From: Tenrec ecaudatus
Lineage: Eukaryota
Direction: 5' to 3'
Assembly: GCF_050624435.1 (NCBI RefSeq)
Contig: NC_134541.1
Location: 125,022,480 to 125,086,479 of the forward strand
Length of the DNA: 64,000 nucleotides
Shown here: piece by piece, positions 30,337 to 41,705 of the stretch
Numbering within the stretch: position 1 is the stretch's first letter
Layout of the letters: each line of letters starts with the position of its first letter
The notes under the pieces: model-generated
Database searches by the model: none
What the model was told of the DNA's origin: nothing
What the model saw: the letters and a program-made list of their open reading frames with translations, nothing else
Position numbers and translations under genes: made by a program

Positions 30337-31701
30337 CTAGGGAGAGGGCAGAGACGTGGGTCGGCACGGTCGCTCCCCTTGTGGCCTGGGCCACAGGGAA
30401 CCAGCAGGCGCTGGTGGGGGCAGCTCCCACTGCCTTTGGGCCCACAACCTAGACAGGAAGCCTTGCAGGTGCGGCCCGTCTCCAAGGCGGCTTCTTGGCA
30501 CTGAACGTGGAAGCAGGCTGAGCTGATGGCAGCAGCAGCAGGTCTGCGTGTAAGTCCGGACTCTCCCGCCCTGCTCCTTCACACCCAAGGCAATCCCTCA
30601 GTTTTAACACATGCAGCGCGGGGATAAGAAGTCATACCACAGGGTGTTCGCGGATTAAGGAAAGTAATATTTGTTAAGAGTTGAGAGCACCGAGGGAGGG
30701 GCCGCACTTCGTGATTGTAGCCGAATGCCAGTGTGGTTCCTGCGGAACCAGGAAGGAAGGGGTTACTCCTCGGATGAACCGCCCCTACGCTAACATGATC
30801 ACGATCACAGGACTGGGTCGGGGTAGCTGCTGTTCGTGACTCTAACAGCCGACCACGTCATCCAGCTCGGCACCGCCCTCACACTGGTCATGTCTGCACC
30901 CATCGCCGCAGCCGCCGCGTCAGTCCACCTCGCCGACAGTCCCCAGCGTGTGGTCCTCCCGGGACTGGTCCCTCCTATGCCAAGGTGAGCCGGTCTCACC
31001 GTCCTGGCTTCTCGGGAGCATTCCGGTGTACCTCCTCCAACACAGTTTTCCTGGTTCTGGCCGTCCAGAGGACTCGGTGTTCAGGCTTCTTTGCCGGCAC
31101 CGCCATTCGAAGGCACCTGCTCTTCTCTGGTCTTTCTTACTCATGGCGAGCCAGCTCTCACAGGATCTGTAAACACCCACAGTAAGGATGACGGGCACCT
31201 TCGTGGCATCTTTGCCGCCCAGGACTTTCAAGAGGTCTCTGGCCGCATCATTGGATTTCTGAGGTGCTGCTCTTCCGCGGGCAACATGAGAAAACGACTC
31301 CACTGTTTCCCCCTTATCACGATGTTGCTTATTGGTCCCGCTGCGAGCTTTAGACATGGGGTGCAGTCCACACTGACGGCTGTCGTCTTGGGTCCACCCC
31401 AGACTTCAAGTCCTCTCTCCTTCCAGCAAGCAAGATGGTGTCCATCTGTCCGGTGAAGGTTGGCTGTCTTTTTTCCGCTCTGACACCTCGTTCTTAGGTG
31501 ACTGGCACAGCGCACAGATGGACCACGTGTGGTGAAAGGATACAACTCTGCGGTGCACCTTCCTGATTGCAAACCACGCGGTGTCCCCGTTCTGCTGGAA
31601 GGACCGCCTTGGTCCTCGGGCACAGGTTCCGTAGGAGCACACTCGAGTGCTACAGAACCCCCACTCTCCGCAGTGTTCTCTCTGCTCCGTTATGGTCCAA
31701 A

Positions 31702-31920
31702 GCAGGCGTCCTCAAACTACAACCCGCGGGCCACATGTGGCCCGCCGAGGACACTTATCCGGCCCACCGAGTGTTTTTGTCCCATTTGTTTTTACTTCAA
31801 AGTAAGATATGTGCAGTGTGCCTAGGAATTTGTTCATAATTTTTAAAACTATAGTCTGGCCCTCCAACGGGTCTGAGGGACAGTGAACTGGCCCCCTGTT
31901 TCAAAAGTTTGAGCACCCCC
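31702..31920 (+). mobile_element. Charlie-like hAT MITE family 2, copy A (TIR CAGGcGTCCTCAAACT...AGTTTGAGcACC; internal palindrome GGCCACATGTGGCC) with perfect TSD GGTCCAAAG
   Basis: Identical 9-mer ggtccaaag at 31693-31701 and 31921-31929. The copy lies in the MVP intron between coding exons 4 and 5. Confidence 0.8.
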
Positions 31921-32383
31921 GGTCCAAAGAGCCAGTGCCTCTGTAGGGTCGACAGAACACAGCAGACAGCGCTCTGGTATGCTCTGCTTTCAGCCGAGAT
32001 CCGTCTGCTCCCAGCAACGGCTGCCCTTGTTCGACACCCTCTTCCGAATCGGGCTTGAGTTTCGGGCAGTCCCCTGGATATCGGGCTGCAGCTGTTTTTC
32101 AATGACTATCTTCGGCAGAATTGTATGTGTGTGAGACGTCAGTGATCTAATTCGATACGTTCTCCCTTCTATCAATCCTCTTTCTTTGGAATGGACCCAG
32201 ATACGGATCTCTTCCATGCTGGGGCAGAGCCAGGGTGAGATGGGAGATCCTGGAGAAGGCTGTACCTGCTTTCAAGAGGTGTTGAGCAAGCACCTTTGCC
32301 CAGACCCGCCCTGTTCCCTCGGAGCCTCAGCAGTGGGAGGCTCTGCCCGCCCCCCCACAGCCGCAGCCCCTTCGCAGCCCCAC

Positions 32384-32515
32384 CTGTCACTCTCTCCTTG
32401 CCATCCCGGTCCTCACACTCCTTGCGGGCCCTCAGCCGCAGGGCCTGGTTCTGCCTGATGATCGTGGCCTGGATGATCTCCACAATCTCTACTTCCTTCT
32501 GGGGGATGTACGTGC
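32384..32515 (-). CDS. MVP: MVP coding exon 4: (G)[43 protein letters not shown](G)
   Basis: Acceptor ctcccag|GCACGTAC and donor GACAG|gtgggg. Confidence 0.9.
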
Positions 32516-32626
32516 CTGGGAGGGAAGAAGAGGTGGGGCTCCAAGGTCAGAAGGCAGCGGGGCTAAGGTGGGCAGGCGGGAAGCCCCTGGGCCCATCTCG
32601 GGCTCTATGGAACGAAGACCGCTTAC

Positions 32627-40224: not shown

Positions 40225-40310
40225 TTGGAAACCCACAGGGCAGTGCGACCCTGTCCTGGAGGGTGCCATGAGTCGGCATCGACTCCATCGATGGCAGTGA
40301 GTTTGGTGTT
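40225..40310 (+). mobile_element. AfroSINE core fragment
   Basis: cacagggcagtgcgaccctgtcctggagggtgccatgagtcggcatcgactccatcgatggcagtgagtttggtgttttgg. Confidence 0.65.
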
Positions 40311-41291
40311 TTGGAGTGCAGTCCCCAGGGAGTGGAGAGGGCACAAGAAGGTCAGGATAGAAGGAGGCTTTGCCAACAGCACTGACTTTTTGGATTATCG
40401 AACAGTTTTATCTGCATATAATTCATAAATCACACGTTGCAGTCGTCCAATCACTTTAAGATTGTACAGTCACCACCCCACAGTGAACTTCAGAACATTC
40501 ACTTCCTGCTTGTACGCACTGCGACCCCCCCTCCCCCCGGCTAAGCCACCAATTTTGAAGCCAAACATGTTTGGTGGGAAGAGTGAGTCACAGGACTGAG
40601 GAAGAGATCGCGGTCCTCCCCAGGCCGCCCTCGTCCAGGGAAGGAGTCACGGGCTTAGAAGAGGAGTTGAAATGCTGAGAAAGATGCCTCCGGTGGGGCC
40701 TGGGTTTTCAGCCGCCAATCTTTAAGGCGTCCTCCTAGGAAAATCTGATCTGAGCTCCAGCCCAGGGGGGACCGCTTTATGGAAAGGCACCTTGGTCACT
40801 GAGTGCTGGGCTAACAGAAAGGGCACGTACAGGAATGTCACTTCCTCACCCTCGGGGGATGGGGTCCTGCAGGACAGGGCCAGTTCCAGGAAAGACTCCC
40901 TCTCTCCCTTGCTGCAGAGGAAGGTTCTGAAGCCTTTTCCTATGCTGCTTCCTGGCTTCCTGGTGATCTCCGTGCTCAACCCCCACTTTCCACACCAAAC
41001 CAAACTCGCCCCCCTCGCATCCTGGTGGACCCATGGGCACCCTACGGGCAGGGTCGAAGAACTGACCCTCTGGGTTTCCGAGACTAGAACTCTTTACCAG
41101 AGTAGAAAGGGCCGTCTTCTCCCCTGGAGTGCCTGGTTTCGAACTTCAGACCTTGCAAATCGCTATGCTACCTGGGCTCCTCCTAAGCACAGAGGTTAGG
41201 GTTTTAAGCACAGAGATTAGGGTTTGGGGGGTGGGGGGGTTGGAGAACACCCAGTTCAACCCACAACAGAGTCAGCCCAAGTCTAGCTCAT

Positions 41292-41526
41292 GCGTCCTCC
41301 AACTATGGCCCGTAGGCCACATGTGGCCTGCCGAGGACATTTATCCAGCCTGCAGGGTGTTTTTGCCCCCATTTGTTTTTCTACTTCAAAATAAGAAATG
41401 TGCAGTGTGCATAAGAATTTGTTCATAGTGTTTTTAAAAAAAACTATAGTCCGGTCCTCCAACGGGTCTGAGGGTCAGTGAACTGGCCCCCTGTTAAAAA
41501 AGTTTGAGGACCCCTGCTCTAGCTCA
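41292..41526 (+). mobile_element. Charlie-like hAT MITE family 2, copy B, with perfect TSD (TCTAGCTC[AT])
   Basis: cgtcctccaactatggcccgtaggccacatgtggcctgccgagg...agtttgaggacccc, flanked by tctagctcat on both sides. It lies in the putative intron 1. Confidence 0.75.
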
Positions 41527-41705
41527 TCCTCTGCCCAGATGCCAGTGACCAGAGCCGTGGTTACAGCTGGAAGACCACCAGATCAGAACCACACCGGCTA
41601 CCAGCTGTTTGCAGGCTCACCCAATCACAGGTCTCCACTGAGGTTGTTAATCCTCGGTTTCCCTGACATCGTTCCAAACCCACTGGACTCTGAATTTTAT
41701 TTATT

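Follow-up and report, generated by a model that had tools for sequence, protein, structure and literature searches.

Two short hAT elements in and upstream of the MVP gene are very probably internally deleted members of the known OposCharlie1 family

Horizontally transferred hAT transposons, OposCharlie1 (OC1) included, have been described as Charlie-related (PMC3014272). OC1 is regarded as a Charlie-like hAT cut-and-paste DNA transposon which entered about a dozen animal lineages, the tenrec among them, by horizontal transfer. These transfers have been dated to ~15-45 million years (My) ago, with the invasion of the dasyurid marsupial lineage at ~17 My ago, and the consensuses of different OC1 lineages are 90-95% identical (PMC3621081). 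The element OC1_Et was reported in Echinops telfairi (PMC3621081), and the 6,837 OC1 copies of the tenrec, which are mostly short and non-autonomous, differ on average by 8.1% from their consensus (PMC3621081, Table 1). The stretch of DNA analyzed here, 64,000 nucleotides of contig NC_134541.1 (positions 125,022,480 to 125,086,479; hereafter the window), carries the MVP gene and two short related elements, copy A and copy B. Both are very probably internally deleted, transposase-less miniature inverted-repeat transposable elements (MITEs) of this same family. They are like tenrec OC1 (OC1_Et and its non-autonomous copies) in the terminal inverted repeat (TIR), in the terminal sequences and in the 8-bp target-site duplication (TSD), the terminal match being established via the OC1_Das consensus, and they are short and non-autonomous as most tenrec copies are, with ~6-7% divergence here against the mean of 8.1% there. 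The family is already known, as a non-autonomous subfamily of OposCharlie1, and any suggestion of an uncharacterized family was not borne out, OC1 having been published before.

The sequence used for comparison was OC1_Das-Auto, the autonomous consensus of 2,571 bp from the Tasmanian devil (PMC3621081, Additional file 1). When searched against the window with blastn it matched copies A and B only, and with its two ends only. Copy A aligned with consensus positions 1-63 (79% identity) and 2416-2569 (84%, E 1.4e-39), and copy B with positions 6-70 (78%) and 2416-2571 (82%, E 3.9e-40), so that the match of the 3' segment spans 155-164 bp and that of the 5' segment 63-65 bp (E 3e-10). In a three-way alignment both copies switch from the 5' to the 3' segment at an identical junction, ~70/~2416, which argues that both come from one internal-deletion derivative; of the 2.6 kb of the autonomous element, each retains just the outermost ~70 bp on the 5' side and ~155 bp on the 3' side. 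A tblastn search of all 64 kb with the OC1_Das transposase gave nothing better than E 0.37. Identity of the copies to the OC1_Das consensus is ~84%, which is what would be predicted from a decay of ~7% per copy combined with the 90-95% identity between lineage consensuses.

The boundaries of the copies were set by the terminal inverted repeats and by the alignment to the OC1 consensus (Table 1). A sequence-only reading of this DNA had placed two related elements at 31702-31920 and 41292-41526. Both elements are present and they are related (84% over 226 bp, blastn), while their coordinates had to be corrected to 31703-31921 and 41289-41516. The same reading described them as hAT MITEs whose TIRs are Charlie-like, which is confirmed here, as is a TSD length of 8 bp, and it proposed an "OposCharlie-type" family as a check, a proposal that led in the right direction since the consensus alignment matches OC1. 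With an nhmmer profile of both copies and the published consensus, only copies A and B were found in the window. Their flanks are unrelated unique sequence, apart from a short interspersed element (SINE) fragment and a microsatellite, and the pair is therefore not a segmental duplication, a possibility which was ruled out also by the similarity of A and B ending at the TIRs. No paralogous empty sites were found inside the window, the flanks being unique with the two exceptions just given.

The closest described MITE outside the tenrec is OC1_Das-NA of the Tasmanian devil (192 bp; PMC3621081), which is also an internal deletion of OC1 and is 92% identical in the terminal ~70 bp at the 3' end. 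OC1_Das-NA joins positions 36/2337 and contains other internal sequence, whereas the window copies are joined at ~70/~2416 and thus represent an independent deletion, and its subterminal motif is GGCCAGATGCGGC as opposed to the palindrome GGCCACATGTGGCC of the window copies. The hAT-HT2_AC element of Anolis and its non-autonomous families, horizontally transferred and Charlie-related, were compared by TIR and TSD pattern only: they have the TIR CAGGGGTCCYCAAACT and an 8-bp TSD preference NTCTAGAN (PMC3014272). The difference in junction from OC1_Das-NA could be taken to mean that A and B belong to a new, undescribed hAT MITE family which shares just Charlie-type termini with known elements, and the literal TIR string is indeed printed in no searchable paper text (neither the TIR nor the palindrome string gave a relevant match in the searchable full text of papers). 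Such a family is nevertheless very unlikely, because the similarity to OC1 (E 1e-40) reaches far past the TIR, covering ~155 bp at the 3' end and ~65 bp at the 5' end, and because a different junction would define at most a lineage-specific non-autonomous OC1 subfamily, as the literature leads one to expect in each invaded lineage.

Several points weigh against the assignment of both copies to OC1. The consensus used is that of a dasyurid marsupial and not the tenrec OC1_Et, so the assignment to a subfamily stays putative. The 5' segment by itself is just 78-79% identical over 63-65 bp. The age and the lineage specificity of the copies are derived from divergence and from the literature. Finally, the match of the OC1_Das transposase to the hAT C-terminal dimerization domain (PF05699; residues 526-576, E 0.0033) scores 17.6 bits where the Pfam cutoff is 21.4 bits, and the hAT placement of OC1 therefore follows from TIR and TSD features together with the literature; zf-C2H2_12 is the only Pfam domain that passes its cutoff in this consensus transposase.

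The TIR of the OC1 consensus (16 bp) is CAGGGGTCCTCAAACT, the same as in the window copies. A scan of the window for this motif gave 11 occurrences at up to three mismatches, compared with 1.2 expected. The four best matches are the ends of A and B, paired as inverted termini at 31703/31921 and 41289/41516, and most of the weaker ones are the SPIN-type TIR CAGCGGTTCTCAACCT. Three of the four TIRs are mutated, and these mutations include the terminal CAG/CTG, with the 3' end of A reading CCG and the 5' end of B reading CAT. It is known that the terminal motif of hAT elements is YARNG (PMC3014272). The 3' end of copy B and the OC1 consensus both read CAGGG, and the remaining ends are mutated to CAGGC, CATGC and CGGGG.

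Close to the 5' TIR both copies contain a subterminal palindrome, which in copy A includes the 14-mer pointed out in the sequence-only reading, and GGCCACATGTGGCC has exactly two occurrences in the window, one per copy. The dasyurid OC1 consensus retains just the 7-bp arms GCGGGCC/GGCCCGC, situated around AGATGC. Conservation between OC1 lineages thus extends to the stem, while the perfect palindrome is specific to the subfamily of the window copies. The stem GCGGGCC-N6-GGCCCGC, which has become a perfect 20-bp palindrome in A, could be a transposase-binding or hairpin-forming cis element required for the mobilization of the MITEs. The DNA fold z-score of -2.4 is accounted for by TIR pairing and the palindrome hairpin. 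An interpretation of the copies as structured RNA or microRNA was rejected, since no Rfam family overlaps copy A or copy B and the fold is explained by the TIRs and the palindrome.

Table 1. Coordinates in the window of copies A and B, their terminal features, the SPIN-like elements and the MVP coding exons
Feature	Position	Strand	Remarks
Copy A, non-autonomous OC1 element, 219 bp	31703-31921	+	antisense to MVP; OC1_Das-Auto blastn; nhmmer E 1.3e-75
Copy A TSD, 5' copy GTCCAAAG	31695-31702	.	identical to 31922-31929
Copy A TSD, 3' copy GTCCAAAG	31922-31929	.	8/8
Copy A 5' TIR CAGGCGTCCTCAAACT	31703-31718	+	15/16 to OC1 TIR
Copy A 3' TIR, reverse complement CGGGGGTGCTCAAACT	31906-31921	-	14/16 to OC1 TIR
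Copy A subterminal palindrome GCGGGCCACATGTGGCCCGC, perfect 20 bp	31726-31745	.	self reverse-complement blastn 20/20
Copy B, non-autonomous OC1 element, 228 bp	41289-41516	+	deletion junction same as copy A; nhmmer E 3.5e-78
Copy B TSD, 5' copy GTCTAGCT	41281-41288	.	7/8 to 41517-41524
Copy B TSD, 3' copy CTCTAGCT	41517-41524	.	7/8 to 41281-41288
Copy B 5' TIR CATGCGTCCTCCAACT	41289-41304	+	13/16 to OC1 TIR
Copy B 3' TIR CAGGGGTCCTCAAACT	41501-41516	-	16/16 to OC1 TIR
Copy B subterminal palindrome GTAGGCCACATGTGGCCTGC	41312-41331	.	9/10 pairs; 14-bp core perfect
SPIN-like hAT MITEs, TIR CAGCGGTTCTCAACCT	4081-4289, 8436-8622, 12693-12882, 19793-19984, 21583-21777, 33421-33617, 49252-50069		
MVP coding exons	20115-34605	-	14 colinear tblastn high-scoring segment pairs to human MVP

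Perfect TSDs of 8-9 bp had been claimed for both copies. This is correct for copy A, whose TSD is a perfect 8-mer, but not for copy B, which agrees at seven of eight positions. The flank identities on which the claim was based are literally in the sequence: the ninth "g" at copy A is, on the 3' side, the last base of the element, and the shared 10-mer tctagctcat at copy B takes in, on the 5' side, the three bases with which the element begins (CAT, from CAG by mutation). The target patterns of hAT elements have been tabulated for related lizard families as NTCTAGAN and NYYTARRN (PMC3014272). The TSD of copy A, with T as its second and A as its seventh base, corresponds to NYYTARRN with one mismatch, and that of copy B corresponds to NTCTAGAN with one mismatch, a fit to the hAT target preference which supports the register chosen for it. 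Flank matches at fixed spacing occur at 3e-4 of window positions for 8/8 and at 9e-4 for at least 7/8; with matches that rare, both TSDs are considered genuine and not products of chance.

An alignment of copies A and B over 219 sites shows 32 differences (14.6%; Kimura two-parameter distance 16.4%) and two indels. When the changes are polarized with OC1_Das, A has 16 of its own and B has 14, i.e. 7.3% and 6.4%, which is close to the published tenrec OC1 mean of 8.1%. At a generic mammalian rate of 2.2e-9 per site per year, 6.4-7.3% corresponds to ~29-33 My. At the marsupial rate of 3.21e-9 (PMC3621081) the same values give ~20-23 My. By inspection ~1/4 of the differences between A and B are CpG transitions, and the true age may therefore be somewhat lower. 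From these divergences the insertions would be roughly 20-33 My old.

An age of this order does not agree with the earlier view that perfect TSDs imply very recent insertion. With 6-8% decay, 26-35% of copies should still have a perfect 8-bp TSD pair and ~37% a pair with a single mismatch, so one 8/8 and one 7/8 TSD are typical at such decay and it does not follow that the insertions are very recent. An intact 8-bp TSD is a weak sign of youth, and internal divergence is the better clock. Insertion within the last few My, or a family which is still mobile, would explain the perfect TSD of copy A and the one perfect 16-bp TIR of copy B, but we regard it as highly improbable: the copies are 14.6% apart, or ~6-7% each, with changes evenly split between them, only one of the four TIRs is free of mutations, which have reached even the essential terminal CAG/CTG, and the published window for OC1 transfers is 15-45 My ago (PMC3621081). 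It is just as improbable that A and B are ancient eutherian Charlie/MER fossils, vertically inherited and common to placentals, with only residual identity in the flanks: many old mammalian Charlie-derived MITEs do carry similar CAGGGGT..CAAACT termini, but the consensus which they match at 84% comes from marsupials whose lineage was invaded ~17 My ago, their pairwise divergence is ~15% and their TSDs are still at 8/8 and 7/8, all of which fits the OC1 burst and does not fit elements of more than 80 My.

The origin of the two copies from OC1 could be envisaged as follows. One internal-deletion derivative of OC1 would be ancestral to both A and B, which would have been mobilized in trans by the OC1 transposase of autonomous copies located elsewhere in the genome. 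This transposase would recognize the 16-bp TIRs together with subterminal sequence, and integration by an 8-bp staggered cut would produce the TSDs. A and B would have inserted independently, into different targets, during the OC1 burst, and each would have decayed by ~6-7% since then, presumably in a neutral manner. Metagenome scans for subfamily-specific and for general OC1 motifs gave 0 matches each, and a scan of viral contigs for the OC1 TIR likewise gave 0 matches.

The two copies are 9.4 kb apart and in the same orientation. If 6,837 OC1 copies are spread over a genome of ~3 Gb, a stretch of 64 kb should hold ~0.15 of them. The distance of 14.6% between A and B, compared with twice the mean of 8.1%, means that the pair is no more alike than random OC1 members, and local hopping is therefore not indicated. 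A preference of OC1 for gene-rich regions is a more likely reason for their proximity.

MVP was located with a human MVP probe, which was used as a lead only. The gene assignment agrees with a Pfam MVP_shoulder match (E 5.9e-33) on the exon at 24424-24813, and database homologues carry the same domain (PF11978). The sequence-only reading had put both copies inside MVP introns. For copy A this is borne out by the tblastn exon positions, as it lies, antisense to the gene, in the intron bounded by the exon that starts at 30337 and by the exon block that ends at 32382. Copy B is situated 6.7 kb upstream of the MVP ATG exon (34492-34605). A GC-rich block at 43500-44250 (68-70% GC, CpG observed/expected 0.59), 9 kb upstream of the same exon, could be the MVP promoter together with a non-coding exon 1, and copy B is in intron 1 only if this candidate is correct. 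A PAGR1 probe, used to bound the 5' end of MVP, had no tblastn match in the window, and the open reading frames in 47-64 kb look non-coding on inspection. A search for MVP exons returned short contigs only, the best of which (91% amino-acid identity) aligns to the window in an exon only, and exact look-ups of two open reading frames of the window found no record. Both copies appear to lie in non-coding parts, antisense to MVP, and presumably they have no effect on it. Just upstream of the ATG exon, at 34713-34786 (+), there is a sub-threshold Rfam match to mir-423 (E 0.0032; 31.5 bits, the gathering score being 71), which is probably due to chance.

SPIN MITEs likewise belong to the hAT superfamily, were horizontally transferred, are of similar age and size and generate 8-bp TSDs. 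The seven SPIN-like copies of the window (Table 1) are 81-92% identical to the reference copy at 12680-12910, and their TIR matches that of SPIN, CAGYGGTTCTCAACCT (PMC3014272), as opposed to CAGGGGTCCTCAAACT in the OC1 copies. There is no detectable internal similarity between the two groups, and the OC1 copies gave no blastn match to any of the seven SPIN-like copies. With different TIRs and no cross-match, the earlier distinction between A and B and the SPIN-like family is upheld, as is the view that this genome has had two active hAT lineages, SPIN and OC1 both being present; this is already in the literature for the tenrec. The copies confirm that SPIN and OC1 have both invaded the genome, as would agree with a tenrec. 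Among mammals other than bats, the four richest in young DNA transposons are two tenrecs, a mole and a shrew (PMC10162687). The SPIN copy at 33421-33617 is also within an MVP intron, and by a rough estimate the density of SPIN in the window is ~3-fold that predicted from a genome-wide average for the tenrec.

Beyond annotation the two OC1 copies are of little import, since the family is published, numbers thousands of copies and has in A and B two ordinary members; their two well-defined insertion sites are possible markers of presence or absence in phylogenetic work. If the host is not Echinops telfairi but another afrosoricid, one from which there is no report of OC1, then A and B, with their clean empty-site sequences, could serve as markers to place the OC1 invasion in time with respect to the radiation of tenrecs, or, independently of this, the palindrome could prove to be a cis element; we see only a slim chance of a wider significance of this kind.

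Some other repeats were observed in the window. The SPIN copy at 49252-50069 is interrupted by a ~490-bp element (~49329-49814) with TG...CA ends and CATGG on both sides. A second copy, inverted and 93-97% identical, is found at 7665-8153, and no younger repeat pair was seen in the window; the element looks like a solo long terminal repeat. Long imperfect microsatellites of the (GT/CA)n type are found at 41690-42175, ~175 bp downstream of copy B, and at 27414-27515. A tRNA-related SINE family containing GGTGGGTTCAAACTGCCGACCTT is present at 1769-1834, 3005-3070, 25205-25474, 37155-37220 and 43286-43351; it appears to resemble AfroSINEs, which would support an afrotherian origin of this DNA.

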